From an uncultured Deinococcales bacterium (lineage in GTDB: Bacteria > Deinococcota > Deinococci > Deinococcales > JAAFIG01), in the NCBI GenBank assembly GCA_964244895.1, contig CAXTKV010000046.1:1-29126 (forward strand): DNA of 29,126 nt, read 5' to 3'. Shown here piece after piece: positions 2 to 29,015 of the stretch (position 1 is its first letter; each line of letters opens with the position of its first letter). The notes under the pieces are model-generated. The model was not told where the DNA came from and searched no databases. It saw nothing but the letters and a program-made list of their open reading frames with translations. A program made the translations under genes and the position numbers.

Positions 2-190
2 TCACGAGACAGCACCTTCTTGATCCTGAGCATGAACCTTCTTGCCGCCAAAGACAGCACCTTCGGGCTTGCGGCGCTGACGGGCAGGATCGCTACCGGG
101 CTGTTCGCGCCTAGCCCACGGTTTCTTGGAACTCGAGGCACCGTTCTGGACGGCGTTCTCGATACCTGAATCAGTCTTTGCCCGTGCCAT
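2..190 (-). CDS. Short hypothetical ORF (62 aa), doubtful
   Basis: ATG at 190, TGA at 4-2 overlapping a GTG (GTGA) that may start a gene leaving the window. Contains one palindromic repeat unit and a 13-bp in-frame duplication (EGAV twice; 7-19 and 52-64). No recognisable family. Confidence 0.3.
   Translation of the reverse strand: MARAKTDSGIENAVQNGASSSKKPWARREQPGSDPARQRRKPEGAVFGGKKVHAQDQEGAVS
132..162. repeat. Palindromic repeat family, single full unit flanked by CTCGAG/CTCGA
   Basis: ctcgag-gcaccgttctggacggcgt-tctcga. Confidence 0.8.
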
Positions 191-201
191 CCGGTTTTAG
201 C

Positions 202-229
202 TCTGACTTCTGACTCCTGATTTCTGACT
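202..229. repeat. Heptamer tandem repeat, 4 copies
   Basis: tctgact tctgact cctgatt tctgact. Confidence 0.8.
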
Positions 230-271
230 GCGTCTCGAGACCCCACGGGAACCCTGGCAGGCTCGACCGCG

Positions 272-277
272 TACAAT
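272..277 (+). promoter_or_regulatory. -10 box for leaderless transcript of DUF2207 gene
   Basis: TACAAT 6 nt upstream of GTG 284, no Shine-Dalgarno. Confidence 0.65.
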
Positions 278-283
278 CGTGAC

Positions 284-2125
284 GTGATCCACACCCCGAG
301 ACGCGCGCTCGCATTCTTCGTGGTCGTCCTGGCGTTCGGCGTCGCCGAGGCGAAATCCTTTCACCTTCAATCCGTCGAGCAGGACGTGTTTTTGCGCGCA
401 GACGGCATGGTTCGGGTCGAGGACGTGCGCACCTTCGCGTTTTCGGGCACGTACTCGAGCGCGTTCTTGACCATCGATCCGCGCGCGGGCGGCAGCGTGC
501 AGTTCGAGAACGTCGAAGCCCTGGACGGCAAAGCCCCGGCCAGCCCGAGCATCGAGGGCAACACGATCCGTTGGCGTTCACCTGCCACGGACGAAACCCG
601 CAAGTTCCGCATCACGTACACGCTGCGCGGGGAGCTTCAGGTCGCGTCCGACGCGGCGCAGTTCGACCGTCAGGTGCTGGAGCCAGTCCACGCGCCGGTG
701 GATCGGTACACGGTGCGCCTGCACGCGCCAGCCGCGAACCCCAGCCTCTTTCGGGTTTTCGTGTACACCAAAAATTCCAGGATCGGACAGTTGAACATCG
801 ACGCGCCGCGCGGCCTGGCCACCGTCACGGTCTCGCCCGTCAGCGAGGACGAATTTATCAGGACGCAAGTTTTTTTGCCCGCCGGTCAGTTCGCGCCGCG
901 CACGATTGTGGGCAACAAATTTCCTGACTGGATCGAACAGGTTCGTCAGGACACGCGAGGCTTCCGCGATGCCTCGCGCGGGGCGCTCGAGAAGGGCGGG
1001 TTTGCGCCGCCGCCACCGCCGACGCCGTGGTACTTGTTGCTCCTGCCGTTCGTGGGCTTCGCTTACGTTTTCGGCAGCGTCTGGGACGCGTACTGGAAGT
1101 ACGGCAAGGAACCGGTCACGCAGGATGTCGGGCGTTACTACCGCGAACCCGCCGAGGACATCCCGCCGAACGCCGTGCCGTTCGTGCTGACCCAATCGGG
1201 CGGTGGATCGCTCGGGCCAGCCGTCAGCGCGACCCTGCTGGATTTCGCGCGCAAGGGGTACGTCAGCCTGGAAAAGCGCCACAACGCCGGGTTGTTCGGC
1301 ATTGGCGCGTCGGATGACACGTGCTTCAGGCTCGAGAAAGACCCCACCGGCCAGCCGACACCTTTCGAGCAGAGCCTCTGGCGGGTGCTGCGCGCCTCTG
1401 CGGGCAGCGATGGCGTGGTCACACCCGCTGAATTGCGCTCGAGCTTTCAGAATTCCACCAGCCTGGCCCAGACCCTGAGCGCCATGCCGCGCCAGTGGTA
1501 CGAAACGGTCAAGGGTTCGTTGGTGGATCAGGGCACGCGCAAGTTCACCGCGCCCGTGGTGATCGTCGCGTTCGTGATCGCGGTCTTGAGCTTCATCCTC
1601 GGGTTTTTCCTGGTCGGTCTGACCGAAGCCATCGGCATCGCGCTGATCGTGGCGGGTGTGCTGACGCTGATCGTGGCAATCGTCGCCACGCAGATTCTGC
1701 CGCGCTGGAACGCGGACAAATTGCTGAACGCCAAACGTTGGATCGCGTACCGCAATTTCCTTTCGGACTTTTCGCAGATGGAAACCGCGCCCGCCGAACA
1801 CTACAAACTCTGGGATTACCACTTCGTCTACGCCACCGCGCTCGGCGTGGCTCAGGCGTACTTGCGCAACCTGCGCCGGATCGAGCAATCGCACCCCGGC
1901 ACGATTTACGCGCCCCTGTGGCTCGGGTCGTACACCGGCGACCCGCGCGGCGGCATCCCGAGTGGGCTCGATTTGACCAGCCTGAATTCCCTGGAAAGCA
2001 TCGCCAGCAACCTGAAATCCCTGGAAAGCGGCCTCTCGCCCAAATCGGAAGGTTCCGGCGGCGGTTTCGGCGGTGGATCATCCGGGGGAAGCTCCGGCGG
2101 TGGCGGCTCGAGCGGTGCGAACTGA
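284..2125 (+). CDS. DUF2207-family membrane protein
   Basis: Signal peptide, extracellular beta domain, TM segments, 'AVSATLLDFARKGYV', 'W.AYRNFLSDFS...LWDYHFVYATALGV', Gly/Ser-rich C-terminus; adjacent to lemA as is typical. Confidence 0.85.
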   Translation: MIHTPRRALAFFVVVLAFGVAEAKSFHLQSVEQDVFLRADGMVRVEDVRTFAFSGTYSSAFLTIDPRAGGSVQFENVEALDGKAPASPSIEGNTIRWRSPATDETRKFRITYTLRGELQVASDAAQFDRQVLEPVHAPVDRYTVRLHAPAANPSLFRVFVYTKNSRIGQLNIDAPRGLATVTVSPVSEDEFIRTQVFLPAGQFAPRTIVGNKFPDWIEQVRQDTRGFRDASRGALEKGGFAPPPPPTPWYLLLLPFVGFAYVFGSVWDAYWKYGKEPVTQDVGRYYREPAEDIPPNAVPFVLTQSGGGSLGPAVSATLLDFARKGYVSLEKRHNAGLFGIGASDDTCFRLEKDPTGQPTPFEQSLWRVLRASAGSDGVVTPAELRSSFQNSTSLAQTLSAMPRQWYETVKGSLVDQGTRKFTAPVVIVAFVIAVLSFILGFFLVGLTEAIGIALIVAGVLTLIVAIVATQILPRWNADKLLNAKRWIAYRNFLSDFSQMETAPAEHYKLWDYHFVYATALGVAQAYLRNLRRIEQSHPGTIYAPLWLGSYTGDPRGGIPSGLDLTSLNSLESIASNLKSLESGLSPKSEGSGGGFGGGSSGGSSGGGGSSGAN

Positions 2126-2247
2126 GCAGCGTCGTATTGATCTCGCCGCAGAGAATTCTCGAGTTTGGATTTCAGGCGACTCCGAGCCCATTCGCAACCT
2201 TTACGAAGACCGCCGCAGACGCAGAACCACCGATTTCAACCCGAGAT

Positions 2248-2266
2248 ATTCCGTCCAGAACGGTCT
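2248..2266. repeat. Palindromic repeat family, degenerate singleton
   Basis: attccgtccagaacggtct preceded by cccgag. Confidence 0.55.
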
Positions 2267-2351
2267 TCTGGGCAACCGTAAAACCCCAATTCGGCACCCT
2301 CGCCCGCCTCGCACCCGAGCCCGCATCGCCCCGTTGTGAAAGGAGCACCAC

Positions 2352-2900
2352 ATGACTGGAATCGTTTTGATCGTCATCCTCGTCGTCCTCGCGCTGATCG
2401 CCGTCAGCCTCTACAACCGCATCGTCAGCCTGGACAACCGCGTCGGCAACGCCTTCTCGCAGGTCGACGTGCAACTCAAGCAGCGCAACGACCTGATCCC
2501 GAACCTGGTCAACACCGTCAAGGGCTACGCCAACTTCGAGCAATCGACCCTTCAGGCCGTGACCGACGCGCGCGCGCGCATGGCCGGAGCGACCAGCATC
2601 GAGGACAAGGTCGGCGCCAGCAACATGATGAGCGCCGCGCTCGGCAAGCTCTTCGCGGTCGCGGAAGCCTACCCGGACCTGAAGGCCAACGCCAGCTTCC
2701 TGGATTTGCAGGGTCAGCTCTCCGGGCTCGAGCAGAAGATCGCGTACTCCAGGCAGTTCTTCAACGACACCGTGCTGGAGTACAACAACGCCATCACGAC
2801 CGTTCCGGGCGTGTTCCTGGCCGGGCCGATGGGCAAGACCAGCAAGCCGATGTTCCAGGCCAGCGACGCGGAACGCAGCGTGCCGCAAGTCCAGTTCTGA
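2352..2900 (+). CDS. lemA: LemA family protein
   Basis: N-terminal TM, 'YNRIV...NAFSQVDVQLKQRNDLIPNLV..VKGYA', 'EAYPDLKAN'; RBS AAGGAG. Confidence 0.95.
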   Translation: MTGIVLIVILVVLALIAVSLYNRIVSLDNRVGNAFSQVDVQLKQRNDLIPNLVNTVKGYANFEQSTLQAVTDARARMAGATSIEDKVGASNMMSAALGKLFAVAEAYPDLKANASFLDLQGQLSGLEQKIAYSRQFFNDTVLEYNNAITTVPGVFLAGPMGKTSKPMFQASDAERSVPQVQF

Positions 2901-2914
2901 CCGAGCGATAAAGC

Positions 2915-2958
2915 GCGTCCCGGACGGTGTGGTTCCTCGAGAACACCGTCCGGGACGC
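2915..2958. repeat. Palindromic repeat doublet, reversed orientation around a central CTCGAG
   Basis: Perfect 16-bp IR gcgtcccggacggtgt / acaccgtccgggacgc with 12-nt spacer ggttcctcgaga; between convergent lemA and recO. Confidence 0.9.
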
Positions 2959-3086
2959 ATTTAATTTGGTAAATCGAGACAATCCTGAGGGTGCTGCGAG
3001 CAGGCGCTCTCGACGCGCGTCCGGCGCAGCCCCTGCGAAAAAGAGCTTCGAGTGGGCTGAAATCTCAGACCCGAGGGCGTCCAGCG

Positions 3087-3848
3087 TCAGGCCAGAATCT
3101 CGAGTTCGATGGGCTGGGACGCCTGCGCTCGGGCTAGACGGAGCGCGGCCCAGGCGTGAATCTCGCCGATGTGGTGGCGGGTGTAGGCCTCGAGCGCGCG
3201 CCACAGGGCTTCTCGGGTGACGGCATCGAGGTCGTCGTCGAGCACCTCGCGCACCGTGCCTCGAGACATGCGCTGGAGTTCGTCCACGGCGTCCTCGCCG
3301 ATGCGCATGCCGCGAGCGATCCGACCCGAAAGCACGCCGCCAGCCACGGGATCAAAATGCGTCAGTCCGGTGTCGTCGCCCGTTTCCAGGCAGCGCACGA
3401 CGCGCGGGTACAACCCGTGCAGGGCCAGCAACTTCCAGGCGATCACCAGCCCCACCCGATCCGGGTCGTGGTGGCGCACCAAGCCGCGCAGGCCGCCGCT
3501 GAAGAGCTCGAAGCCAGCCTGTCCCACGAAATCGTTCTCCTGCCAGACCCGATCCGCCAGTTCCGCCAGGAGGTGCGCGAACGGGTAACGCGATGGGTCG
3601 GTCAGGGTCGGCAGCGCGCCCTCGAGTTGCACTTGCGTGATCGTGGCCAGGTCGTTGCCGGGGCGCTCATAGAGTTGCAGCGTCAGGTGCTGAAACAGGT
3701 TCAGGCGCGGCGAGCGCGGCCCTTTGACGCCGGAACGCGCGACCGCGCGGAGCTTGCCTTCCGGGGTCAGCACGCCCAGGATCACGTCCCCGGCTGGGGT
3801 CACGGAACGCCTCAGCACGATGCCCGAACGGACGCGATACCGACTCAC
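3087..3848 (-). CDS. recO: DNA repair protein RecO
   Basis: 'GIVLRRSVTPAGDVILGVLTPEGKLRAVARSG...RLNLFQH' N-terminal OB fold followed by helical domain, Deinococcus/Thermus-like; TATGAT 6 nt upstream of GTG. Confidence 0.92.
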   Translation of the reverse strand: MSRYRVRSGIVLRRSVTPAGDVILGVLTPEGKLRAVARSGVKGPRSPRLNLFQHLTLQLYERPGNDLATITQVQLEGALPTLTDPSRYPFAHLLAELADRVWQENDFVGQAGFELFSGGLRGLVRHHDPDRVGLVIAWKLLALHGLYPRVVRCLETGDDTGLTHFDPVAGGVLSGRIARGMRIGEDAVDELQRMSRGTVREVLDDDLDAVTREALWRALEAYTRHHIGEIHAWAALRLARAQASQPIELEILA

Positions 3849-3894
3849 GCCCGAATCATAACCCGGCAGACGCGGATCATCAAAGCCGCGAATA

Positions 3895-4000
3895 TCGTGC
3901 TGGACGGCGTTCGCATGCGCAAGTCGGATTTGGTGCGCGTCCGAGATTTCAGGAACACCGTTCCGGGCGGTATTGATAAAATGCGTGCTGGACGGTGTTC
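3895..4000. repeat. Palindromic repeat singleton (3895-3910) plus doublet (3955-3998, 12-nt spacer)
   Basis: tcgtgctggacggcgt; acaccgttccgggcgg-tattgataaaat-gcgtgctggacggtgt. Confidence 0.85.
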
Positions 4001-4070
4001 TCTAGGACTTCAGGATCACTTCAGATGTGGGTCGCGCCCGGAATCTCGAGCTGAACCTTGACGGCCCGGT

Positions 4071-5474
4071 TCACGCCCGTTCGAGCGGTAACCGTACCGT
4101 CACGGTCGTTCCCTGCCCGAGGGCGCTCGAGATCTCGGACTGCCCGCCGTGCGCCACCGTCACGCCCTGCACGACCGCCAGTCCCAACCCGAAGCCGTCG
4201 CGGTGCGTCGGATCGGCCCGGTTGAAGGCCTCGAACAACAGCGTGAGCTTGTCGGCGGGAATTCCGATGCCGGTGTCGCGCACGCGCAGCACGGCGCTGG
4301 TGATTTCGGGGTGAACCTCGAGTGCGATCTCGCCGGAGTGCGTGTACTTGATGGCGTTGCCGATCAGATTCTCGACCATCCGTGAGAGCAGCACGCGATC
4401 GCCGAGGATGCGGGTCGGCGAGCCGTTGACTTCCAGACTCAGGTTCTTGGCGGCAGCCAAGGGCATCATGCGATCTACGGCGTCGGAGGCGATGTCCAGA
4501 AGCTCCAGCGGGGTGCGCGCAATCGGTTCGTTGACCTGAGTGCGTTGCAGCGTCAGCAAGTTCGAGGCCAGATCGTACATGTGGGTCGCCACGCGCAACG
4601 ACCGCCGCAGCGCCAAGCGTTGATCGTCGCTGGAGCGGGGTTTGGCCAGCGCGTGCTCGAGTTCCGCGACCAGCGCCGTGATCGGCGTGCGCAATTCGTG
4701 GGATGCGTCCGCCAGGAACCGCGCCTCGCGCTCGCGTTGCTCGAGCGTCAGCCTGCGGCTCTGCTCGATGGCGCGAGCCAGCGTGCCGATCTCGTCGGTG
4801 CGGTGCGTACCGGGGATCGGGTCGTGCGCTTCCAGGTCGTCCACACGGCGCGTCAGGTGCTCCAGATCGACGGTCGCGGTGTTGACCGCCAGCACCGTCA
4901 CCAGGCCCGCCAAGAGCGCCGCGATCAGCGTGCCGAACGAACTGATGCGGGCGTAAGAACGGATCGTGCCCTCGATCGGTGCGAGCGGACGACCGATCTG
5001 CACGATCAACCCGCCGCGCCGTTCGCTGCGGACGCGCCAGCCGTCGCAACTGCACACCGCGCGCTGAGCGCTCGTGATCAGAAATCGGCTGTCCAAAGGT
5101 TCCGGCGAATCCGGCCCGCTGCCCCAGATCAGCTTGCGCGGCGCGGCGTCGCGGTACACGAAGGCGGTGGCGCTGCCGTTGACGCTCTGAAGGCTGTCGT
5201 CGGCGGTGGTCGAGGGTTCGTTGGTGCTCGACTCGAGCGCCTCGTTCATGACGATGCGGGTCATGACGCTCAGTTCCTCGTCCAGATCGCGCACGCGCGA
5301 ACGCTCCAGGGCCAGCCCGGAACTGATGGCCAGCGCCGCCAGCGCCAGCAGCGTCACCAGGCTCGAGAGCGCCGCCAGCCGATACCGCAAGCTGATCGCG
5401 GCCCAAAAAGACCATCGGGGACGGGGCTTCCCGGATTCGTGGGGCTGAATGATCGCCGCGCGTTTTAAATTCAC
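4071..5474 (-). CDS. Sensor histidine kinase (2 TM, HAMP, HisKA, HATPase); start uncertain
   Basis: 'FLADASHELRTP' H-box, 'NLIGNAIKYT' N-box, 'DTGIGI' G1, 'GFGLGL' G2. Confidence 0.93.
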   Translation of the reverse strand: MNLKRAAIIQPHESGKPRPRWSFWAAISLRYRLAALSSLVTLLALAALAISSGLALERSRVRDLDEELSVMTRIVMNEALESSTNEPSTTADDSLQSVNGSATAFVYRDAAPRKLIWGSGPDSPEPLDSRFLITSAQRAVCSCDGWRVRSERRGGLIVQIGRPLAPIEGTIRSYARISSFGTLIAALLAGLVTVLAVNTATVDLEHLTRRVDDLEAHDPIPGTHRTDEIGTLARAIEQSRRLTLEQREREARFLADASHELRTPITALVAELEHALAKPRSSDDQRLALRRSLRVATHMYDLASNLLTLQRTQVNEPIARTPLELLDIASDAVDRMMPLAAAKNLSLEVNGSPTRILGDRVLLSRMVENLIGNAIKYTHSGEIALEVHPEITSAVLRVRDTGIGIPADKLTLLFEAFNRADPTHRDGFGLGLAVVQGVTVAHGGQSEISSALGQGTTVTVRLPLERA

Positions 5475-5534
5475 TCGCCCATCCCGAGGGCTCGAGCGGG
5501 TCTGGACTGGCGTACTCGGGCGGCGGGCATCATC

Positions 5535-6197: not shown

Positions 6198-6412
6198 ATC
6201 GCCATCATAGCGCGCACCGGAAGGCGTCCAGTTCGCCGGATTCGTCTCGAGCCTCATCGGGGCAGTTTGAACCCGGCACGTGAAGCACAGGTGGAAAGCC
6301 TGGCCGGGATCGTCTCGAGCCCGGTCGATGCCTGAATTCCGGCGGCACTCGCGCTCCTCGGGCGGGCGTACCGAACCCGAGCGAGGCCCTCGGCGGGCGG
6401 AACCGCCCGCCC

Positions 6413-6469
6413 AGACCGTCCTGGACGCAGTCTTTGTGCGCTCGAGAAACCCTGTCCTGGACGGCGTTC
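6413..6469. repeat. Palindromic repeat doublet, 23-nt spacer containing CTCGAG
   Basis: agaccgtcctggacgc (6413-6428) ... ctgtcctggacggcgt (6452-6467). Confidence 0.85.
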
Positions 6470-6557
6470 CCTGAAAGGTCGATGCCCGAACGCGCGGCGC
6501 ACCCGCGTCGCGGATTGAATTCCACCCGCGTTTCATCATTCCAGGGTCAAATAAGCC

Positions 6558-10052: not shown

Positions 10053-10113
10053 GAGAACACCGTTCAGGACAGTGTTCTTGTATTTTCAAGAAATTGCGTC
10101 TGGGACGGTGTTC
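10053..10113. repeat. Palindromic repeat doublet, 23-nt spacer
   Basis: acaccgttcaggacag (10057-10072) ... gcgtctgggacggtgt (10096-10111); between convergent genes. Confidence 0.88.
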
Positions 10114-10134: not shown

Positions 10135-10632
10135 TCACGACTCGAGATCGAAAACCCAGTCGTTGCAGGTCATGAAATGTTCCTTCGGGTACTCGAACTG
10201 CACCTCGCCCAGCAAAGAAAAGCCGAGCGCACCGCACAGGCCATTCGACGCGGCGTTCTCGAGATTCGGAAAGGCGTGAAGGTGCGGGTGCCGACCCACC
10301 GTTCGCAGCCGTTCTAACAAGGCTTGAAGTCCCGCTTTGGCGAGCCCCTTTCCCTGCGCTTCCGGCACGACGAACCAGCCGGTTTCCCAGATCGTTTCGC
10401 CCTCCCACGCTCGTTCCCAGTAACCGATGGAACCGACGGCCTGAGCGTCCGACAGGATTACCAACATCTCGCCCCGATCTCGCCCCCGCATGGCCAAATA
10501 CCGAACATGGCGCGCCTCGATCTGCTCGGGTGTTTCCGGCCCGCCCAGGTGGGTCATCATGCGCGGATCGCCGAGCAATCGATGCAACAACCCGAGATCC
10601 TCTTCAGACCAGGGTCGGAGCTCCACCTTCAC
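10135..10632 (-). CDS. GNAT family N-acetyltransferase (RimJ/RimL-like)
   Basis: 'VELRPWSEEDL', 'ETGWFVVPEAQGKGLA', 'N.ASNGLCGALGF'; GTG overlaps the pyrD stop (GTGA). Confidence 0.88.
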   Translation of the reverse strand: MKVELRPWSEEDLGLLHRLLGDPRMMTHLGGPETPEQIEARHVRYLAMRGRDRGEMLVILSDAQAVGSIGYWERAWEGETIWETGWFVVPEAQGKGLAKAGLQALLERLRTVGRHPHLHAFPNLENAASNGLCGALGFSLLGEVQFEYPKEHFMTCNDWVFDLES

Positions 10633-11666
10633 CTCGGCATCTCGGGCGATCTCAGACCGCGATTGATTTCGCGGAGCATCATCGGTCCATCGTAAATCCA
10701 GCCCGTGTAAATCTGCACCAGGCTCGCACCGGCATCCAGGCGTTTTTGCGCGTCGTCCGCGCTCGAGATACCGCCGACCGAGATGATCGGCAATTGTCCG
10801 TTCGTCTGGCGCGAGAGGTGCGCCAGCATCTCGAGGCTGCGCGCCTTCAAGGGGCGCCCGGACAGCCCGCCCGATTCCGTGATCCGCGTGCTCAGCCCAT
10901 CCCGCGCCAACGTCGTGTTGGTGGCGATGATCCCGGACAGACCGTGCGTCTCGAGCAGCGATAACATTTCGTCGAGTTGCGTGAAGCTCAGATCGGGAGC
11001 GACCTTCAACAAGACTGGTTTTTGGTGCGGCTGCGCTTTCACGAAATCCATCACGGCCTTCAGCAAGACCTCGAGCTTGTCCTTGTCCTGCAACTCGCGC
11101 AGGTTGGGCGTGTTCGGGCTGGAGACGTTGATCGCGAAGTAATCGCCGTAATCGTACAGGCGCTCCAAACTCGAGACGTAATCGGCGGGCGCGTCCTCCA
11201 GGGGCGCGATTTTTGACTTGCCCAGGTTGATGCCCAACGGCACGGGTAGCTTTCCGAATTCGTGCCGCCAGAGCTCCAACCGCGCGGCGATCACGCGCGC
11301 ACCGTGGTTGTTGAAGCCCATGCGGTTGATGATCGCGCCGTCTTCCGGCAGGCGGAACAAGCGCGGTTTCGGGTTGCCGGGTTGCGCGTGCGCCGTGACG
11401 CTGCCGATCTCGACGAAGCCGAAGCCCAGCGCGGGCCAAACCGGGAGCGCCAGCGCGTTCTTGTCGAAGCCCGCCGCCAGCCCGACCGGGTTGGGGAACT
11501 CGAGATCCCAGAGTTTGACGGGATGCGTCGAGATCGGCGCGCACATTTTCGAGATCAACTCGAGCGCCGCGCGGCTCCTGGCGGCGAGCCTGAGCGCACC
11601 CATCACGACATCGTGGACGCGCTCAGGGTCGAACTGGAACAGAACGGGTTTCAAGAGGTCGTACAT
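10629..11666 (-). CDS. pyrD: Quinone-dependent dihydroorotate dehydrogenase (class 2)
   Basis: 'NPVGLAAGFDKN', 'GNPKPRLFRL', 'NRMGFNN', 'NVSSPNTPNLR', 'GGLSG'. Confidence 0.97.
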   Translation of the reverse strand: MYDLLKPVLFQFDPERVHDVVMGALRLAARSRAALELISKMCAPISTHPVKLWDLEFPNPVGLAAGFDKNALALPVWPALGFGFVEIGSVTAHAQPGNPKPRLFRLPEDGAIINRMGFNNHGARVIAARLELWRHEFGKLPVPLGINLGKSKIAPLEDAPADYVSSLERLYDYGDYFAINVSSPNTPNLRELQDKDKLEVLLKAVMDFVKAQPHQKPVLLKVAPDLSFTQLDEMLSLLETHGLSGIIATNTTLARDGLSTRITESGGLSGRPLKARSLEMLAHLSRQTNGQLPIISVGGISSADDAQKRLDAGASLVQIYTGWIYDGPMMLREINRGLRSPEMPR

Positions 11667-11719
11667 CGGGTTCCTGTCTGCTGAGCGCGATGAATCGCAC
11701 CCTACGGGTTCGTTTTTAG

Positions 11720-11772
11720 GAACACCGTCCCAGACGCGTATTTAAGACTGCGTCCTGGACGGTGTCCTCGAG
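11720..11772. repeat. Palindromic repeat doublet, 12-nt spacer, inside pyr operon
   Basis: acaccgtcccagacgc-gtatttaagact-gcgtcctggacggtgt-c-ctcgag. Confidence 0.92.
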
Positions 11773-11774
11773 AT

Positions 11775-13061
11775 TCACGCCCTGGCGTCGAACGCGAGCT
11801 TGCCGCGCACGATGGTCGCGACGGGCCAGCCGCGCAGCGTTTGAGCGTCCCACGGGCTGAATTTGGCTTTCGATTTGAATTTTGACGCGTCCACGCGGCG
11901 TTCCGTCTCCAGATCCAGCAGCACCAGATCGGCGGGCGCACCGATCTCGAGGCTCGGCGCGGGCAAGCCCAGAACGCGCGCCGGGCCGAGCGTTAGAAGC
12001 TCGAGCAAGCGCTCCAGTTTGAGTTTCCCACCGTGCGAGAAGAGCGTGTACAACAGCGGAAAGCAGACTTCGATGTTGCCGATCCCGAACGGCGCCTCGA
12101 GCATGTCGCGCTCCTTTTCCGAGCGCGTGTGCGGCGCGTGATCCGTCCCCAGGCAATCCACCGTGCCGTCCAGCAGGCCGTCCAGCAGCGCGCGCGTGTC
12201 GGAGAGCGTGCGCAACGGCGGCGCGACCTTGAAGATCGGATCGAAGGCTTCCAGGGACGCGTCCGTCAGCGTCAGGTGGTGCGGCGCGACCTCGCAGGTG
12301 ACGTTCGAGCCCTGCGATTTGGCGCGCCTGAGAAGTTCCAGCCCTCGGGCAGAGGAGAGGTGCTGGACGTGCAACCTCGCGCCGGGATGGTTGCGCTGCA
12401 CGAAGGCCAGAATCTCGAGATCCCGCGCGATCCGCGCCGCTTCCGCCGCGACCGGATTGCCCGGCAAGCCCAGGCGTTCGCTGACCTCACCCTCGTTCAT
12501 CACGCCATCGCCGCGCAAGCTCGCGTCCTCGGCGTGAACCGAAATCACCAGCCCGAGCGGTGCGGCGTACTCGAGCGCCCGCCGCATCACGCCCGCGTCC
12601 TCGACGGTGCGCCCGTCGTCGGTCAGCATCAGCGCGCCCGCCTCGCGCAGCGCCGCCGCGTCCGAAAGCTGTTTGCCTTCCTGCCCGCGCGTCATGGCCG
12701 CCGACGGGATCAGGCGGGCAAAACCCAAACGCTCCGCCTTCTGAATCAGTTCGCGCACGATATTGGGGTCGTCCACCACGGGTTTCGTGTTCGGCATGGA
12801 GACCACCGTGCCGTACCCGCCCGCCGCCGCCGCCGCCAACCCGGACGCCAGGTCTTCTTTGACCTCCTGCCCCGGCTCGCGCAGGTGCGCGTGCGGCTCG
12901 ATGAAGGCCACCGCCAGCGTCAAGCCCTTGCCCGGAATCTCTCGATCCGCGCTGCCGCCAAGATCGAAACCTTCGATCACACCGTCCCTGACGTAAACAT
13001 CCCTCGCGTCGTAGACGCCCTTGTGATCGGCCAATCGCGCGCCGGAAATTTTTAATCGCAT
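11775..13061 (-). CDS. pyrC: Dihydroorotase (long type)
   Basis: 'HAHLREPG', 'MPNTKP', 'EVAPHHL', 'KVAPPLR', 'TDHAPH'; RBS AGGAG. Confidence 0.96.
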   Translation of the reverse strand: MRLKISGARLADHKGVYDARDVYVRDGVIEGFDLGGSADREIPGKGLTLAVAFIEPHAHLREPGQEVKEDLASGLAAAAAGGYGTVVSMPNTKPVVDDPNIVRELIQKAERLGFARLIPSAAMTRGQEGKQLSDAAALREAGALMLTDDGRTVEDAGVMRRALEYAAPLGLVISVHAEDASLRGDGVMNEGEVSERLGLPGNPVAAEAARIARDLEILAFVQRNHPGARLHVQHLSSARGLELLRRAKSQGSNVTCEVAPHHLTLTDASLEAFDPIFKVAPPLRTLSDTRALLDGLLDGTVDCLGTDHAPHTRSEKERDMLEAPFGIGNIEVCFPLLYTLFSHGGKLKLERLLELLTLGPARVLGLPAPSLEIGAPADLVLLDLETERRVDASKFKSKAKFSPWDAQTLRGWPVATIVRGKLAFDARA

Positions 13062-16732: not shown

Positions 16733-16786
16733 CGAGAACACCGTCCAGGACGCGAATATTAACTTGCGTCCTGGACGGTGTTCTCG
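16733..16786. repeat. Palindromic repeat doublet, best copy (perfect 21-bp IR, 12-nt spacer)
   Basis: cgagaacaccgtccaggacgc-gaatattaactt-gcgtcctggacggtgttctcg. Confidence 0.97.
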
Positions 16787-18711: not shown

Positions 18712-18763
18712 CTCGAGAACACCGTGCGGGACGCAGATCACAAAACACGTCCTGCACGGTGTT
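18712..18763. repeat. Palindromic repeat doublet, 12-nt spacer, compensatory variant
   Basis: ctcgaga-acaccgtGcgggacgc-agatcacaaaac-acgtcctgCacggtgt. Confidence 0.9.
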
Positions 18764-19356: not shown

Positions 19357-20235
19357 ATGGCACGAGGACTCAACCACGTTTACCTGCTGGGCGCACTCGC
19401 CCGCGACCCGGAATTGCGCTACACGCCGACCGGAACCGCGATCGCTGACCTGACCATCGCCGGTGAGGACAACATCGTCGGCAACGACGGCAAGGCCCGC
19501 AGCCTGCCCTGGTATCACCGCGTCAGCTTGCTGGGCAAGCAAGCCGAAGGCATCTCGGATCAGTTCAAAGCCGGGGACGCCGTGATGATCGAAGGCGCAC
19601 TGGAATTCCGCACTTGGGACGACAAGACCACGGGCGCGAAACGAAGCGCCGTCAACGTGAAAGCGCTCCGGCTCGAGGGCGCGAGCTATGGCAACCGCGC
19701 GGAACCAACCACGCGCGATTCTCGGGACGGCTATCGCTTAACGAACGCCATGAACGAAGTCGTGCTGATCGGCAACCTGACGCGCGACGCGGAATTGCGC
19801 TACACCCCATCCGGCGATGCCGTCACGACCATTTCCGTGGCCGTCAACGAATCCTGGAAGGACAAGACCGGCAACTGGCAGGAAAAAACGCACTTCGTCG
19901 AGATCAACCTCTGGCGCGAACTCGCAGAGAGCGCCGGCGAACTCCGCAAGGGCGATCCCGTGATGGTCATGGGCCGACTCGTCAACGAGTCTTGGACGGA
20001 CAAGGAAGGCAACAAACGCAACTCCACCAGAGTTGAAGGAAGACGCATTGAAGCCCTTTCTCGCGGCCCCGGAGCGCCTGGCAGCGCTGGAGCCACCTCG
20101 GGTGCAGGCCGTCAAGTCAGCGGCGATGCACCCTCGCGCGATCGAGCACCCGCTCGAGGCGCAGGGTCCCGTGCGGGATTGGACATTGATGATGGCTTAC
20201 AAGAATTCCCGCCAGAAGAAGACCTCCCATTCTGA
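19357..20235 (+). CDS. ssb: Single-stranded DNA-binding protein, Deinococcus/Thermus two-OB-fold type
   Basis: Two OB folds ('GLNHVYLLGALARDPELRYTP' and 'MNEVVLIGNLTRDAELRYTP'), acidic tail 'PPEEDLPF'. Confidence 0.98.
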   Translation: MARGLNHVYLLGALARDPELRYTPTGTAIADLTIAGEDNIVGNDGKARSLPWYHRVSLLGKQAEGISDQFKAGDAVMIEGALEFRTWDDKTTGAKRSAVNVKALRLEGASYGNRAEPTTRDSRDGYRLTNAMNEVVLIGNLTRDAELRYTPSGDAVTTISVAVNESWKDKTGNWQEKTHFVEINLWRELAESAGELRKGDPVMVMGRLVNESWTDKEGNKRNSTRVEGRRIEALSRGPGAPGSAGATSGAGRQVSGDAPSRDRAPARGAGSRAGLDIDDGLQEFPPEEDLPF

Positions 20236-21123: not shown

Positions 21124-21168
21124 GTGGCTCGGGCCTGAACGAGGCGTTCTCGAGCGATTTCTTTTTTC

Positions 21169-21896: not shown

Positions 21897-21931
21897 GTTT
21901 GCAGCGGAGGCTCGTTGGCTCGGAGTCGAAG

Positions 21932-21994: not shown

Positions 21995-22011
21995 GTGTAA
22001 AGTCCCCGAGC

Positions 22012-22039
22012 TTGATCGGGCCAGCCTGAACGGTAGAAT
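22012..22039 (+). promoter_or_regulatory. Putative dnaB promoter
   Basis: TTGATC-N16-TAGAAT. Confidence 0.5.
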
Positions 22040-22149
22040 GCCCGAACCCAACCCAGGCTCGAGCACTTTCGCGCCTGGGTTGACCATCCGAGCCGCGCGA
22101 GACCTGACGCTTTTCTCAACTCACGAACACCCGCGATGAAAGACACCGA

Positions 22150-23511
22150 ATGAGCATCGAACCCGGCCCGAGCCGCATCCCACCCAGCAACCTCGACGCG
22201 GAAAGCAGCGTCCTGGGTTCCATCCTGCTGGACAACGATTCGTACAACCAGCTCGAGGGACAGGTTCGCCCGGAAATGTTCTACAAGGAGGCGAACCGCA
22301 AGATTTTCGCCGCCATGGAAGACCTGATCTCGCGCGGCGCGCCGGTGGACACCGTCACCATCGTCGAGGAGTTGCGCACCCGCAACCAGATCGACGAGGT
22401 CGGCGGCGTGGCCTACATCGTCGGCCTGGCGGACGCCGTGCCGACCAGCGTGTACGCGAGTTTCTATGGGCAGATCGTGCAGGAAAAAGCCAGCCTGCGC
22501 AGCCTGATCGCGGCCTCGAGCAAAATCATGCAGCTCGCCTTCGACGAGGCCGCGCCGGTCGGTGAACTGATGGATCGTGCGGAAAAGCTGATCTTCGACG
22601 TGGCGCAACAAAAGCGCGCGGATCGCTTCGCGGAAATGAAGGATCTGGTTAACGAGACCTTCAAGTACATTTCCCAACTGGCCGAAAATCCGGGATTGAC
22701 CACCGGCGTGTCCACCGGATTCCGCGACCTGGACGAGATGACGACCGGGTTGCAACCGGGGTCGTTGAACGTGCTGGCGGCCAGACCTTCGATGGGAAAA
22801 ACCGCGTTCGCGCTCTCCATCGCGCAGAACGTCGCCGTGCGCGGCGGCAAGACGGTCGCGGTCTTCAGCCTCGAGATGCCCGCCACCCAACTGGTCTTGC
22901 GCATGCTCTGCTCGGAGGCCCGCGTGGACATGAACCGCGTGCGCTCCGGGCAGTTGAACGAACGCGATTTCGAGCGGCTGGTCAACGCGGCGGATCGTTT
23001 GCATCAGGCTCCGGTTTTCATCGACGACGTGCCCGATCTGAACGTGATCGAGTTGAGATCCCGAGCGCGCAGGCTGATGGCGGAACGCGATTTGCAACTG
23101 ATCGTGATCGACTACTTGCAACTGATGAACGGCAACCCTGGGCGCAGCGGCGGCGGTGGAGGAGATGGCAACCGCCAGCAAGAAATTGCCACGATCTCGA
23201 GAAGCCTGAAGTCCCTGGCGCGCGAATTGAACATTCCCGTGCTGGTGCTTTCCCAGCTCTCCAGGCAGGTGGAATCCAGACCGAACCACCGTCCGATGCT
23301 GTCGGATCTTCGCGAATCGGGCGCGATCGAGCAGGACGCCGACCTGGTCGCGTTCATTTACCGCGACGAGTATTACAACAAGGAATCCGAGAAGCAGGGC
23401 ATCGCGGAAATCATCATCGGCAAGCAGCGCAACGGCCCGGTCGGAACGTGCGAGTTGCAGTTTCACTCGCAGCACGTGCGCTTCAACGACCTGGCGAAAG
23501 ACGGCGTTTAG
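22150..23511 (+). CDS. dnaB: Replicative DNA helicase
   Basis: 'PPSNLDAESSVLGSIL', Walker A 'AARPSMGKT', 'FSLEM', 'IDYLQLM', 'LSQLSR', 'DLRESGAIEQDAD', 'KQRNGPVG'; no intein. Confidence 0.98.
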   Translation: MSIEPGPSRIPPSNLDAESSVLGSILLDNDSYNQLEGQVRPEMFYKEANRKIFAAMEDLISRGAPVDTVTIVEELRTRNQIDEVGGVAYIVGLADAVPTSVYASFYGQIVQEKASLRSLIAASSKIMQLAFDEAAPVGELMDRAEKLIFDVAQQKRADRFAEMKDLVNETFKYISQLAENPGLTTGVSTGFRDLDEMTTGLQPGSLNVLAARPSMGKTAFALSIAQNVAVRGGKTVAVFSLEMPATQLVLRMLCSEARVDMNRVRSGQLNERDFERLVNAADRLHQAPVFIDDVPDLNVIELRSRARRLMAERDLQLIVIDYLQLMNGNPGRSGGGGGDGNRQQEIATISRSLKSLARELNIPVLVLSQLSRQVESRPNHRPMLSDLRESGAIEQDADLVAFIYRDEYYNKESEKQGIAEIIIGKQRNGPVGTCELQFHSQHVRFNDLAKDGV

Positions 23512-23536
23512 CGCGAGCTCGAGAATCACTCTTTTC

Positions 23537-23600
23537 CAGGAATACCGTCCCAGACAGTGTTTTTACCGCTCGAAAAAATGCGTGTGGGACGGTATTCCTG
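23537..23600. repeat. Palindromic repeat doublet, 22-nt spacer, concerted variant
   Basis: caggaataccgtccca / tgggacggtattcctg perfect 16-bp IR; between convergent dnaB and fni. Confidence 0.9.
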
Positions 23601-23635
23601 ATTCCTCGAGACTCCCAGGCGCGGGCAGGTTTCTC

Positions 23636-24649: not shown

Positions 24650-24823
24650 GCCCCCGAGCCTACCGCGCGCGGGTGAGGGAGAACCCTTACAGCCCCAAGC
24701 TCCAGTCCCGAACCGTGAGGTCTGCTCGCTCTTTACGGGTCGTTGCAGCTCGAGCGAAATGAACGCGAGCAATTCATCTCGAGCCTCGAAGCGCACCGTG
24801 AAATGTGAAAAGATACGGACACG

Positions 24824-25966
24824 ATGAACGAAGAAGACATCCTGGTGATCGGCGCTGGCCCCGCTGGACTGGCGGTATCGGCTTGCCTGAGCCGCTTGGG
24901 TCTTCCTCACGCGGTCGTGGAACGCGAGATGACCGTCGCTTCGAGCTGGCGCAAGCACTACGACCGGCTTCGCCTGCACACCACCAAGCGCTTCTCTGCC
25001 CTGCCGTTCTCGCCCTGGCCGCCCGAGTCACCGGGGTATCCGTCTCGCGATCAGGTCGTGGATTACTTGCAGCGGTACGCCACGGAACATCGGGTTGCGC
25101 CCCGACTCGGTGTCTTTGTCAAGAGCGTTCGGCGCGCAGGCGAGCGTTTCGAGGTGGAAACCAGCGCCGGTACCATGACACCGCGTTTCGTGGTGGTGGC
25201 GACCGGCAACAACGCCGTGCCGGTGAACCCTGCGTTTCCTGGACTCGAACAGTTTGCGGGCAGCGTCGTACACGCTCAGCAGTACGAGAACGCGGAGCCC
25301 TACGCGGGCAAACGCACGCTGGTGGTGGGTTGCGGCAACTCGGGCGCGGAAATCGCGCTCGACCTGGCGGAACACGGTGTGGACGTGGCCATGGTGGTGC
25401 GCGGGCCGGTTCACGTGATCCCGCGCGATCTTTTTGGGCAACCCAGCCAGACGACCGGGGTGCTGCTTTCGCCCCTGCCGATGGCCGCGCGCGACGCCAT
25501 CGTCGGGGCGGTCATGCGCGTCGTGGTCGGTGATCTTTCGCGCTGGGGAATCGTGCGCCCAGAGGTCGGGATGAACCGGATGATGTCGGATACGGGGCGC
25601 ATTCCGATGCTGGATCTCGGGACGGTGGCCATGATCAAGCAAGGCAAAATTCGGGTGCTGCCGGGCGTGACAAAGGTTCTTTCTGACCGCGCGCGGTTCG
25701 CGGATGGCAGCGCGCACCCGTTCGAGGCGATCATCCTGGCGACGGGTTACACGCCGGGACTGAGCCGCATCATCGAAGGCTTTGAAACCATCTCGGATTC
25801 GCGCGGCAGACCGCACCATCTCGGCGCGGGAACAGACATCGCGGGATTGTACTTCGTCGGTTTTCAAAGCACGACCACTGGAGCCCTACGAGAGATCGCG
25901 TTCGAGGCGCGTCGCGTCGCGGCTGCGCTCAGTCATCAGATGAGCGCAGCCAATGCGACGGAGTGA
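24824..25966 (+). CDS. Flavin-containing monooxygenase (class B, YUCCA-like)
   Basis: GAGPAG, 'WRKHYDRLRLH', ATG motif, FxGxxxHxxxY (FAGSVVHAQQY), GCGNSG, 'LATGY'. Confidence 0.92.
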   Translation: MNEEDILVIGAGPAGLAVSACLSRLGLPHAVVEREMTVASSWRKHYDRLRLHTTKRFSALPFSPWPPESPGYPSRDQVVDYLQRYATEHRVAPRLGVFVKSVRRAGERFEVETSAGTMTPRFVVVATGNNAVPVNPAFPGLEQFAGSVVHAQQYENAEPYAGKRTLVVGCGNSGAEIALDLAEHGVDVAMVVRGPVHVIPRDLFGQPSQTTGVLLSPLPMAARDAIVGAVMRVVVGDLSRWGIVRPEVGMNRMMSDTGRIPMLDLGTVAMIKQGKIRVLPGVTKVLSDRARFADGSAHPFEAIILATGYTPGLSRIIEGFETISDSRGRPHHLGAGTDIAGLYFVGFQSTTTGALREIAFEARRVAAALSHQMSAANATE

Positions 25967-26081
25967 CAACATCAACCGATGTGCATCGGGCGCGCGATCA
26001 CGCTCGAGCGGTGCGCCATTCATGCCAGAGCCTGATCTGATTTTAGACTGTTGATCTGAGGCCGCGACTCAAAAGGAGCGT

Positions 26082-26456
26082 ATGAAAGCGATCCACAAAG
26101 CCTGGAACGATGTCGAATCCGAGCAGCTCTCGAAGCTGATCACGCGCCGGTACGTGCACGGCGAACAGGCGATGGTCGCGCGGTTCGATCTGAAATCGGG
26201 TGCGGTCGTGGCGTGGCACGAACACCCGAACGAACAGATCAGCCTGTTGCTCGAGGGACGCGCGCGGTTTTCATTTCGCGATGAAGACGGCGAATACGTT
26301 CTCGAGGCGGTCGCGGGTGACACGGTCGTGATTCCGGGCGGCGTGCCGCACCGCGTGGAAGCGCTCGAGGATGCGCGGGCTTTCGATGTGTTCGCGCCGC
26401 CGCGCGAGGACTGGTTGCGGGCTGAAGACGCGTACCTGCGCGAGCCTCAGGGCTGA
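26082..26456 (+). CDS. Cupin domain protein
   Basis: 'WHEHPNEQ', 'IPGGVPH', 'DVFAPPREDW'; RBS AAGGAG. Confidence 0.9.
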   Translation: MKAIHKAWNDVESEQLSKLITRRYVHGEQAMVARFDLKSGAVVAWHEHPNEQISLLLEGRARFSFRDEDGEYVLEAVAGDTVVIPGGVPHRVEALEDARAFDVFAPPREDWLRAEDAYLREPQG

Positions 26457-26488
26457 GTCGGGCTCAGGAAGCCGGGAAAAGGAGACCC

Positions 26489-26818
26489 ATGTTGGATCAA
26501 GATGATGCCGTCGCCGCCGCGCCCGACCACCACAGGGTCTTGCTCGAAGATGACCGGGTTCGGGTGCTGGAAACCCTGCTCTTGCCCGGTCACGAAACTG
26601 CCGTTCACACGCACGTCTGGTCGGGGTTCTTGTACATCGTGTCCTGGAGCAATTTCGTGCGCTACGACGAACACCGGAACGTGATTCTGGATTCGGCCAG
26701 CATCAAATCGACGCCCGTTCCCGGCACGGCCATTTTGGCGGCGCCGCTCCCGCCGCATTCGTTGCGGAATGTCGGAAATCAGAACATTCACGTGATTCTG
26801 ACCGAATTCAAGCGTTGA
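26489..26818 (+). CDS. Cupin-fold protein
   Basis: 'HHRVLLEDDRVRVLE...PG.ET.VHTH...PHSLRNVG...EFK'; RBS AAGGAG. Confidence 0.85.
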   Translation: MLDQDDAVAAAPDHHRVLLEDDRVRVLETLLLPGHETAVHTHVWSGFLYIVSWSNFVRYDEHRNVILDSASIKSTPVPGTAILAAPLPPHSLRNVGNQNIHVILTEFKR

Positions 26819-26860
26819 CCCGAGCGAATTTCGATGCTCGAGCCTCGGGTATCGCGGGGC

Positions 26861-27211
26861 TCAATCCATCCGGCCTCGGGCGCCGATCAACCCGCCGATC
26901 AGCGAGCCCACGATGTCCGCGATCCAGTCGTCGAAGCCGGAATTGCGTCCGGGGCTGAAGACCTGGTGCGCCTCGTCGATCGCGCCGTAGAGCGCGGCCA
27001 GCAGGAATCCGCGCCGAGCGCTACCCGTGGCCGCACCGATCAGCGCCCCGAGCAGCGCGTAGGCTGCGATGTGCGCCAGTTTGTCCCACGGTGACGCGAT
27101 CTGCACGCTCGAGCCGGGCCTGGCCGACGACCACCAGATCGCGCCCATCCAGACGAGGGCGGCCAGCCACCAGAACGCGGGCGCGCCGCTCGAGCCCCGA
27201 TTCCGCGTCAA
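26861..27211 (-). CDS. VanZ family protein
   Basis: 'DKLAHIAAYALLG', 'YGAIDEAHQ.F.PGR...DDWIAD..G'; TTG start overlaps upstream stop (TTGA). Confidence 0.88.
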   Translation of the reverse strand: MTRNRGSSGAPAFWWLAALVWMGAIWWSSARPGSSVQIASPWDKLAHIAAYALLGALIGAATGSARRGFLLAALYGAIDEAHQVFSPGRNSGFDDWIADIVGSLIGGLIGARGRMD

Positions 27212-27645
27212 TGCGGGGCTCCGTTGAGCAGGTTTTTGGGGTGTTCGCACAGTTCGATCAGCGCGCCCGCGCCCCAGCTCGGGTGCAGGAAAGCCACGCG
27301 GGTTCCGGCGCGTCCGGGGCGGGGTTCAGGGTTCAGGAAGCGCGCGCCGGACGCGCTCAGACGCGCAATCTCTGCCTCGAGATCGCGAACCCGAAAGGCG
27401 GCGTGGTGCAAACCCGGCCCGCGCTTCTGGATGAAGACCGCAATCGGCGAATCCGGTGCGGTCGGCGCGAGCAGTTCGATCAGCGTTTCCCCGGCGCGGA
27501 AGGCGCGCACCGTCACGTGCTGGCTTTCGACCGTCTCGTCCGGGCCTTCTGGTGGCAAGCCCAACGCCACGTAGGGCGCGCTGCCCGTCTCGAGATCCGG
27601 CGTGGCGATGCCGATGTGATCCAGCGGAAATCCGAACAATTCCAT
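27208..27645 (-). CDS. mce: Methylmalonyl-CoA epimerase (VOC family)
   Basis: 'LDHIGIAT', 'IELLAP....SPIA.F...RGPGLHH.AF.V', 'FLHP....G.LIEL.E'; TACAAT 6 nt upstream of ATG 27645. Confidence 0.88.
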   Translation of the reverse strand: MELFGFPLDHIGIATPDLETGSAPYVALGLPPEGPDETVESQHVTVRAFRAGETLIELLAPTAPDSPIAVFIQKRGPGLHHAAFRVRDLEAEIARLSASGARFLNPEPRPGRAGTRVAFLHPSWGAGALIELCEHPKNLLNGAPH

Positions 27646-27692
27646 GCGCCGATTGTACACGTCCTAGACGCGTCCTCGAGCGACCCAGCGCC

Positions 27693-27741
27693 CGAGAACA
27701 CCGTCTGGCACAGTATTCTCAATATGCGCGCTGGACGGTAT
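27693..27741. repeat. Palindromic repeat doublet, 12-nt spacer
   Basis: cgaga-acaccgtctggcacag-tattctcaatat-gcgcgctggacggtat. Confidence 0.85.
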
Positions 27742-27746
27742 CGCGC

Positions 27747-29015
27747 TCAGGGTCGCTGTATCCAGGCCAGGTCTCTGGGGTTCAACCCGCCGTTGACGAA
27801 GGCGTTGGCGGTCGGCGTCAGGTTGTCCAGCGAAATCAGGTCGTACTGCGTGAGCCCGCCACCCGCGCCGAGCGTCCAGGCGAAACCGTCGGGCGTGAAG
27901 GCCACCGTGCGCACCGTGACCGACAGGCTGGTGATGGCGCTGCCGCGCGCGAATTTCAGCCTGTCCGGCAGCACGAAAGCGAAAGTCGGCTGGTTGACGC
28001 CGTCGGAAACCTTGTTGTCGGTCAGCACGTTCTGGACGATTCCGATGGGTTGGTTGTTGACCCTGAATTCGTCCGCCGGGAGCGCGTTGGCGGTCGCGGG
28101 GAGCTGGTAGACGCGCCCGGAAAAATCGTCGCTGAAGGAGATGAACAGGTTGCCCGCGTTCAGCAAGAGCTTCGAGAATTTCGGCGTCGGGATGCTCGAG
28201 AGCTGGATCGGGGGCAGCGCCTGAGCCTGCGCCTCCTGATCGAGCGTCGGCGGTGTGTTGGCGGTGTTGAGCGCGTAGCGCGTCAGCACCTCGTTGCCCG
28301 CGTTCGGTGAGAGCACGAACAGCGTGTTCTCCGAGAGCGCGATGGAAATCGGGCCGCTGTTGGGCGCGTACGGGAAGACGGTCGCGGGTTGCAACGGCGT
28401 GCCGGGCGCGGTCAGGCGCTGCCAGACGATCACGCGCGGCGGTCGGTTGGACGCGGCGCAACCGGAATCCGTCACGCCGGGGTCGTCCAGCGCCGCGACC
28501 AGGCTCCCGGCGGGCGAAATGGCAATTCTGGTCGGGCAGAAATCCGTGATCGCAGCGGGCGGAATCAGGTTCGTCGGCGCGGCCAGGCTGGATGGCCAGT
28601 CCTGAATCTTGCCGCTGGTCGGCAGGCTGACCACGAACCGCGAACCCTGCGGCGAATTCGTGTCGGTCAGCACTGCGTAGGGCGGACTCTCGAGCGCCTG
28701 GAACAGGCAGCGTCCGCCCTGGCTGGCATCCGCGTTGCCCGTCAGGCGGTCGGTGTCCAGCACCAGCAGGCCCGGCCCCGTCACGGGCGCGGTCGCGCAC
28801 GATGGCCCGGCGGTCTGCGGCGCTTGGGTCGGGTTGACTGGAATCAGCAACTCGATGCCGGACGCGCCCTGTTCCGTCGATCCGGTGCAAGCGGCGAGCG
28901 CCACGACAGCGCAAGAAAGAACCGTCCTGCACGCAAGTTTGGTATACCCAGAAAACACCGTGCCAGACGGTCTTTTCGTGATGCTCGAGAAAACCTTCTT
29001 CATGGTCGGCCTCAT
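27747..29015 (-). CDS. Hypothetical lipoprotein, probable beta-propeller; start 29015 or 29003
   Basis: Lipobox 'VALAAC'; beta-rich repeats ('IAISPAG', 'IALSEN', 'VAFTPDG'); ATGA overlap with upstream gene. Confidence 0.75.
   Translation of the reverse strand: MRPTMKKVFSSITKRPSGTVFSGYTKLACRTVLSCAVVALAACTGSTEQGASGIELLIPVNPTQAPQTAGPSCATAPVTGPGLLVLDTDRLTGNADASQGGRCLFQALESPPYAVLTDTNSPQGSRFVVSLPTSGKIQDWPSSLAAPTNLIPPAAITDFCPTRIAISPAGSLVAALDDPGVTDSGCAASNRPPRVIVWQRLTAPGTPLQPATVFPYAPNSGPISIALSENTLFVLSPNAGNEVLTRYALNTANTPPTLDQEAQAQALPPIQLSSIPTPKFSKLLLNAGNLFISFSDDFSGRVYQLPATANALPADEFRVNNQPIGIVQNVLTDNKVSDGVNQPTFAFVLPDRLKFARGSAITSLSVTVRTVAFTPDGFAWTLGAGGGLTQYDLISLDNLTPTANAFVNGGLNPRDLAWIQRP
28919..28973. 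repeat. Palindromic repeat doublet, 23-nt spacer, inside lipoprotein 5' coding region
   Basis: gaaccgtcctgcacgc (28919-28934) ... ccgtgccagacggtct (28958-28973). Confidence 0.8.

Follow-up and report, generated by a model that had tools for sequence, protein, structure and literature searches.

The question raised by this locus is why a single six-base palindrome, CTCGAG, recurs throughout 29,126 nucleotides of DNA from an uncultured Deinococcales bacterium (contig CAXTKV010000046.1 of GenBank assembly GCA_964244895.1; this whole stretch is referred to as the window), and what keeps it there. An initial annotation, made from the sequence alone, had put the number of copies at about 120 and likened the word to the highly iterated palindromes (HIPs) of cyanobacteria. 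In the window, whose guanine-cytosine (GC) content is 63.5%, 122 copies were counted (4.2 per kb), against 13.1 ± 3.5 expected from 100 dinucleotide shuffles, the largest of which gave 21. By reading frame, 62 of them encode Leu-Glu, 20 are read as nnC TCG AGn and 3 as nCT CGA Gnn, and 37 lie outside called genes. The answer favored here, with a probability of about 45%, is that CTCGAG may be a Chi-like signal that stops AddAB, the helicase-nuclease of this lineage, and that biased repair has fixed.

The source genome (G000; 5.12 Mb, 62.7% GC, 91% complete) contains 21,883 copies (4.27/kb, about one per 230 bases). CTCGAG is its most frequent hexamer, about twice as common as the next unrelated word, and its density lies at 2.4–6.8/kb in all 190 contigs of at least 10 kb. 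The observed-to-expected ratio (O/E) under Markov orders 0 to 4 is 12.8, 9.1, 9.8, 3.4 and 1.25, respectively; the high orders absorb CTCGAG itself, and once the word is masked, 1,100–2,424 copies are expected genome-wide. Most other palindromic hexamers are depleted, some of them at O/E 0.01–0.1. Since the flanks are only mildly biased (C favored after the word and T avoided), the unit is taken to be six bases. That is to say, the HIP-like behavior first suspected in the window is found genome-wide, in all frames and between genes. No CTCGAG occurs in 1,425 bases of the partial 16S region. As a separate observation, the densest cluster of the genome, 11 copies in 500 bases, belongs to a clustered regularly interspaced short palindromic repeats (CRISPR) array near 31359 of contig C36, the repeat of which contains the word.

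For the codon statistics, 4,338 genes were called with a codon model built for this analysis, covering about 79% of the genome, with low-GC genes missed by the caller. When synonymous codons are shuffled so that the protein and the codon usage of each gene are kept, the excess remains 3.6-, 12.5- and 6.9-fold in the three frames, and TCGA outside CTCGAG is neutral (O/E 1.06–1.10). Codon-pair and TCGA usage, on which the initial annotation would have let the excess founder, are therefore rejected as its cause. Intergenic DNA carries 7.9 sites per kb and genes 3.75. Within genes, Leu-Glu is encoded by CTC GAG in 11,084 of 18,672 pairs, whereas CTC accounts for 21% of other leucines. Moreover, Leu-Glu is the most enriched dipeptide of the genome, at double its expected frequency (O/E 2.11); the corresponding values are 2.15 in the related genome G006, 1.54–1.58 in two moderately enriched genomes and 1.12–1.26 in four non-enriched samples. 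CTCGAG is thus frequent enough to change the proteins of the genome.

The spacing of sites, examined up to 600 bp with count windows up to 5 kb, is close to random and slightly even, and no helical or short-range phasing was seen within those 600 bp. Counts per window of 0.5–1 kb are the least dispersed among 265 and 260 common hexamers (variance/mean 0.96–0.98). In the closed chromosome of G006, the density is likewise even, with 70–112 sites per 20 kb in 16 samples and no origin–terminus gradient among them. A raw trend, in which CTCGAG is used in 46% of Leu-Glu pairs near another site and in 73% of those far from one, disappears once Leu-Glu opportunities are controlled, and density compensation between neighboring sites is therefore rejected. 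The genome also contains a genus-specific inverted repeat resembling repetitive extragenic palindromic (REP) elements, with 2,907 arm cores genome-wide and arm spacings of 13, 38 and 48 bases, and CTCGAG stands immediately 5′ of 374 of these arms. This repeat is nearly absent from the relatives sampled. It is rejected as the source of the word, because spacers free of it still carry 4.9–7.9 sites per kb and relatives almost without it have more sites.

Twenty kilobases of one relative (G003) were compared with five congeners that are 86–88% identical, the test being one of relatives and not of G000. Of 1,065 symmetric comparisons, 896 showed the whole site intact, the figure for other hexamers being about 47%; in a second genus, at 79% identity, 380 of 539 did so, against 27%. 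At the codon level, G003 served as query, with 69 distinct Leu-Glu sites and up to five congeners. Inside sites, CTC was altered in 22 of 279 comparisons and GAG in 9 of 270; outside them, the counts were 121 of 313 for CTC and 159 of 381 for GAG, so that synonymous positions within sites change 5–12 times less often in relatives. Transversions are suppressed as well as transitions, CTC having become CTG in 3 of 279 comparisons inside and 41 of 313 outside. Since loss is lower inside sites, transversions included, a pure site-creating mutation bias and a repair restricted to T:G mismatches are rejected. CTCGAG is held in place by a DNA-level force that acts on the exact hexamer, at the level of the single site and whatever the frame. 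Selection, biased conversion and site-protecting repair fit these data alike, and the data cannot separate them.

The enrichment is not confined to one genome. The nearest relatives of the single-stranded DNA-binding protein (SSB) encoded in the window (74–79% identical) belong to uncultured Deinococcales genomes that are also rich in CTCGAG, and all 19 genomes of this uncultured family carry 4.3–6.8 sites per kb. Their CTCGAG-rich loci span 46–61% GC, and the density holds over 46–64% GC overall. Across 364 genomes of the phylum, a tally that includes the unpublished G327 but hangs no individual claim on it, the enrichment is graded, and its proposed extension to Deinococcota accordingly holds. 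The group labels used below, Deinococcus-like (f3), Meiothermus-like (g13), Thermus-like (g9) and Truepera-like (f2), are presumptive and were drawn from the sizes of the groups and of their genomes. In f3, 122 of 125 genomes have at most 0.46 sites per kb, the exceptions being G042 (3.6), G156 (8.6) and G157 (7.0); G158, a congener of the last two and 95% complete, has 0.3/kb and no excess. Genera g13, g26 and g27 reach 1.4–3.5/kb, genus g9 lies at 0.6–1.6/kb, close to its GAGCTC control, and no excess was seen in named Deinococcus loci. Separately, viral contigs picked by a triple-site pattern (L409, L448, L420 and L477) carry 3.7–7.2 sites per kb; in 2 of 64 parts scanned for triple sites, the 30 densest of 80 loci showed no likeness to G000 beyond one 35% match.

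It has been reported that AddAB degrades DNA ends until it meets Chi, that the enzyme of Thermus thermophilus degrades or limits incoming DNA, and that Deinococcus lacks addAB (PMC11143384 and PMC9751324). AddAB was picked here through the contrast between G157 and G158, followed by a nuclease-family search on 36 genomes, and a Thermus-type AddAB is encoded by G000. An AddA profile matches 224 of the 364 genomes: 18 of 19 in the family, where the sole genome without a match is 57% complete, 5 of 125 in f3, and 22 of 23, 66 of 68 and 113 of 128 in the other families. The AddB profile, searched in 80 chosen genomes (26 of the 125 in f3), matches 56 of them, including G156, G157, G042 and G153–G155, and finds no match among these 80 in G158, G362 or 12 g7 genomes. 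In G158 and in G362 (O/E 1.0), neither AddA nor AddB was found, and neither has a CTCGAG excess; the same is true of G221. Among five AddA-negative genomes at least 91% complete that were rechecked, three have AddB. A second, RecB-like group of PF12705 proteins was rejected as a cause, as its distribution does not track CTCGAG. A second RecB/AddAB-like helicase-nuclease pair, distinct from the Thermus type, is present in G042, G041, G148, G154, G159 and others (L332–L339), and G042 and G154 carry both kinds.

AddAB was found in six f3 genomes, of which three iterate CTCGAG and three (G153–G155) have it at only 0.02–0.05/kb. In the latter, the top codon-corrected hexamer is CCAGAG/CTCTGG, with 22,865 copies in G154 against 2,571 of the reversed control, 9,548 against 3,729 in G153, and 8,785 against 2,534 in G155; the densities are 4.5/kb (8.9-fold), 1.6/kb (2.6-fold) and 1.5/kb (3.5 times the reversed control), respectively. 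In two AddA-negative controls, the counts are 1,585 against 1,206 (G158, 1.3-fold) and 1,623 against 1,988 (G041, 0.8-fold). Over 382 kb of G154 genes, CCAGAG is enriched 4.6-fold, in all six frame-strand classes, with CCCGAG next at 3.3-fold, and T is avoided after the word as it is after CTCGAG. In all six AddAB-bearing f3 genomes, the iterated word therefore follows the pattern C-(T/C)-(C/A)-GAG; the other 119 have no CTCGAG excess, and in two of those CCAGAG was counted genome-wide. A non-palindromic variant fits a reader of single strands.

On these grounds, CTCGAG may act as a Chi-like signal in the following manner. AddB would read CTCGAG on unwound single-stranded DNA, and AddAB would stop degrading there, so that DNA ends bearing the word would be spared and would go on to recombine. 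Stretches without it would be degraded and then copied anew, either from a further copy of the chromosome or from incoming DNA. Biased replacement, together with selection for repair, would then fix new sites and guard old ones, each independently. The palindrome would act from both directions, which may account for its extreme density. Multi-copy chromosomes occur in Deinococcota. The AddB profile aligns to Bacillus subtilis AddB (E 3.5e-10) across both Chi helices; among the contact residues described for B. subtilis AddAB-Chi (PMC4614115; structures PDB 4CEH/4CEI/4CEJ), Q42 is conserved, W73 and F210 are matched by aromatic residues, and D41, T44 and R70 differ.

Several points weigh against a Chi-like signal. 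No AddB residue change sorts by word or explains the switch to CCAGAG. AddAB alone does not suffice: the Thermus-like genomes have it, and in 91 kb from two of them CTCGAG occurs 63 times against 89 after synonymous shuffling; G349 has only 25 against 15. Conversely, neither AddA nor AddB gave a match in G271 (470 contigs, 91% complete), which yet holds 5,800 copies against 2,681 of the control (2.2-fold). Strand polarity is a usual mark of Chi, though non-polarized candidates exist in Vibrio (bioRxiv 2020.08.13.249359); leading-strand polarity is not applicable to palindromic CTCGAG, and CCAGAG lacks it on two G154 contigs (604:583 on C3, 413:401 on C6). After control for Leu-Glu opportunities, there is no density dependence (z 1.6 and −1.9). 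The co-occurrence with AddAB depends on some three or four independent losses, and in the small genomes G158 and G362 many genes have gone at the same time. As a candidate, AddAB was moreover chosen and is not the product of an unbiased screen, only PF12705 and ComEC having been tested besides methyltransferases, and the conservation was measured outside G000, in pairs that share one query and are not independent.

A sequence-specific chromosome-binding protein, such as a nucleoid or repair scaffold, might instead select a dense lattice of CTCGAG, with AddAB merely sharing its distribution. The conservation of sites between related genomes, the low dispersion of counts and the even density round the closed chromosome would suit such a lattice, and a like role has been argued for HIP1 (PMC5861425); against it stand the near-random spacing without short-range phasing and without compensation between neighbors, and the difficulty of switching a dimeric palindrome binder to non-palindromic CCAGAG. 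No candidate protein was identified, and this explanation is considered unlikely. Neisseria and Haemophilus possess DNA uptake sequences, and CTCGAG might similarly be an uptake signal spread by biased natural transformation, as has also been proposed for HIP1. ComEC is encoded by G000, the sites behave independently, and HIP1 is described as raising transformation in Synechococcus 7002 (bioRxiv 2024.09.10.611283) and as correlating with uptake genes (PMC13756078). However, among the five genomes searched, ComEC is also present in the non-enriched G158, Deinococcus radiodurans and T. thermophilus and does not track the word; G158, the named Deinococcus loci and the Thermus-like samples show no excess, and no receptor was identified, so uptake appears quite improbable. 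As for neutral causes, namely mutation bias, T:G-specific very-short-patch repair, codon-pair preference or a repeat element, the transition neighbors TTCGAG, CCCGAG and CTTGAG are indeed enriched 1.3–2.7-fold genome-wide, and 4,147 of the 21,883 sites lie at most 40 bp from a loosely matched repeat arm. The suppression of transversions, the survival of the excess after codon correction, the density of repeat-free spacers, the still higher counts in relatives almost without the repeat, and the density at 46–64% GC largely refute them, and they are regarded as very improbable.

Methylation was the driver that the initial annotation had placed beside repair. In such a model, an orphan methyltransferase would mark CTCGAG, and methyl-directed repair would ratchet near-matches to full sites, as Elhai proposed for HIP1. 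G000 encodes five recognizable DNA methyltransferases, namely a PglX-like enzyme of the bacteriophage exclusion (BREX) type, a type I M subunit (these two labels are our own reading), a low-GC type II beta enzyme, a D12 enzyme and a DUF6094 protein, all of which look like accessory defense genes; a 5-methylcytosine (m5C) methyltransferase was not found in this 91%-complete genome. Searches for PF07669, PF01555, PF00145 and PF02086 over 41 genomes returned many accessory systems. Against those methyltransferase loci of relatives that were fetched, only part of the matches, the G000 enzymes reach at best 32% identity, with no close match, and no cluster among them both contains G000 and spans the family. 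Of the 364 genomes, 7 have a XhoI nuclease and 17 a gamma-class methyltransferase type linked to one of these nucleases, mostly without a XhoI nuclease match and in moderately enriched genomes; Nocardia is known to have an orphan CTCGAG enzyme (PMC4752239), and some HIP1-rich cyanobacteria likewise have no recognizable cognate enzyme (PMC4390886). In the 19 family genomes, however, neither XhoI nucleases nor the gamma-class type nor the beta-class XhoI partner were found (0/19 each), and of the 26 g13 genomes, every one of them enriched, just 6 gave the gamma-class type. The expected XhoI- or TaqI-like orphan enzyme tracking the enrichment did not emerge among the recognizable enzyme classes, and the methylation half of the earlier proposal is very doubtful; its repair half lives on in another form, with break processing by AddAB as the best lead. 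As observations apart, the methyltransferase at L105 (G030) is 48% identical to the XhoI-linked enzyme, 16 of the 17 genomes with such enzymes have no XhoI nuclease match, and some of the matches in G182–G184 contain stops. GAGCTC is nearly absent (0–161 copies) from 18 f1 relatives, all with an m5C methyltransferase match, and G000, without such a match, keeps 568.

The features concerned are collected in Table 1. The low-GC restriction-modification locus listed there has probably arrived recently; it is devoid of CTCGAG, but several methyltransferase loci of relatives at 40–45% GC carry 4–6.7 sites per kb. CGGCCG is the most depleted hexamer of G000 (30 sites, O/E 0.01) and a possible target of the pair formed by the D12 enzyme and its neighbor.

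Table 1. Features of the window (plain positions) and of other contigs of the source genome G000.
Feature	Position	Strand	Remark
CTCGAG, 122 dispersed copies	132..28989	.	85 in called genes over all three frames, 37 outside
REP-like inverted repeat, one copy	3954..3999	.	often abutted by CTCGAG, not its cause
Further REP-like copies	near 2942, 10056-10112, 11721, 14143, 16737-16782, 18616, 18718-18763, 21993, 27697, 28954		in the window
recO	3087..3803	-	recombination mediator whose step follows that of AddAB; its presence in the window is incidental
Double-OB-fold SSB	19357..20235	+	lineage marker
dnaB	22150..23511	+	anchor for fetching relatives; three CTCGAG sites, as in an ordinary gene
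addB	G000:C128:11513-14104		outside the window
addA	G000, across end of C128 and start of C123		outside the window
D12 methyltransferase beside NotI-family nuclease	G000:C6, about 30750-32670 (L084)
41%-GC type II restriction-modification pair	G000:C114, about 10620-12770 (L083)		0 CTCGAG in 2,151 bases

No description of iterated CTCGAG in Deinococcota, or of CTCGAG as a Chi of AddAB, was found in the literature covered, which leaves out most subscription journals, and the passages on Thermus AddAB in PMC11143384 and PMC9751324 name no Chi sequence. HIP1 has been without an agreed function for three decades; CTCGAG adds a second phylum and offers natural gains, losses, a switch of sequence and a named enzyme, AddAB. 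If the Chi-like interpretation is true, a signal for repair can become dense enough to alter proteins, these bacteria might be transformed more efficiently by donor DNA to which CTCGAG has been added, and a kind of repeated word still unexplained in cyanobacteria would gain a testable cause. A wider version, tentative and in its entirety rather unlikely, would be a Chi code read by AddAB throughout Deinococcota, with CTCGAG ancestral, a switch to CCAGAG/CCCGAG in one lineage and loss together with AddAB elsewhere. Biased repair in multi-copy chromosomes would then have produced one site per 120–230 bases and rewritten proteins, and HIPs, HIP1 included, would be runaway recombination signals and not by-products of methylation.

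Compared with known systems, XhoI/PaeR7I-type systems and an orphan methyltransferase described in Nocardia (Blow et al. 2016, PMC4752239) have the same hexamer as their target; in Nocardia, the sites are concentrated around dnaA and follow the distribution of the enzyme, whereas in the present family they extend over the whole genome and the search for such an enzyme gave none. HIP1 (GCGATCGC) and the alternate cyanobacterial HIPs (PMC4390886 and PMC5861425) are alike in being short palindromes over-represented genome-wide, in all frames and between genes, in being conserved between related genomes beyond the codon level (here in two family genera, not in G000), and in that their hosts avoid most other palindromes. 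CTCGAG differs in phylum, in sequence, in having six bases without a fixed extension, in the lack of a cognate methyltransferase among the enzymes found, and in the non-palindromic variant of a sister lineage. It is neither GCGATCGC nor a described alternate, and CGATCG, a palindrome of the HIP1 core type, is depleted in G000 (O/E 0.32–0.44). HIP1 octamers reach 0.2–2.73/kb, a figure for the eight-base word and not for its six-base core. CTCGAG therefore resembles HIP1 but misses two of its features, the sequence and the co-distributed cognate orphan methyltransferase. From the Chi of AddAB and RecBCD (for B. subtilis AddAB-Chi, PMC4614115), it differs in being palindromic, in being about 20 times denser than the Chi of Escherichia coli (one per 5 kb), in being strong enough to double a dipeptide, and in having a variant without strand polarity. 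Like Chi, it is a short over-represented word that varies by lineage in genomes encoding AddAB, and AddB here appears, by profile alignment, to keep a recognizable Chi-scanning domain; CTCGAG is a candidate Chi of AddAB.

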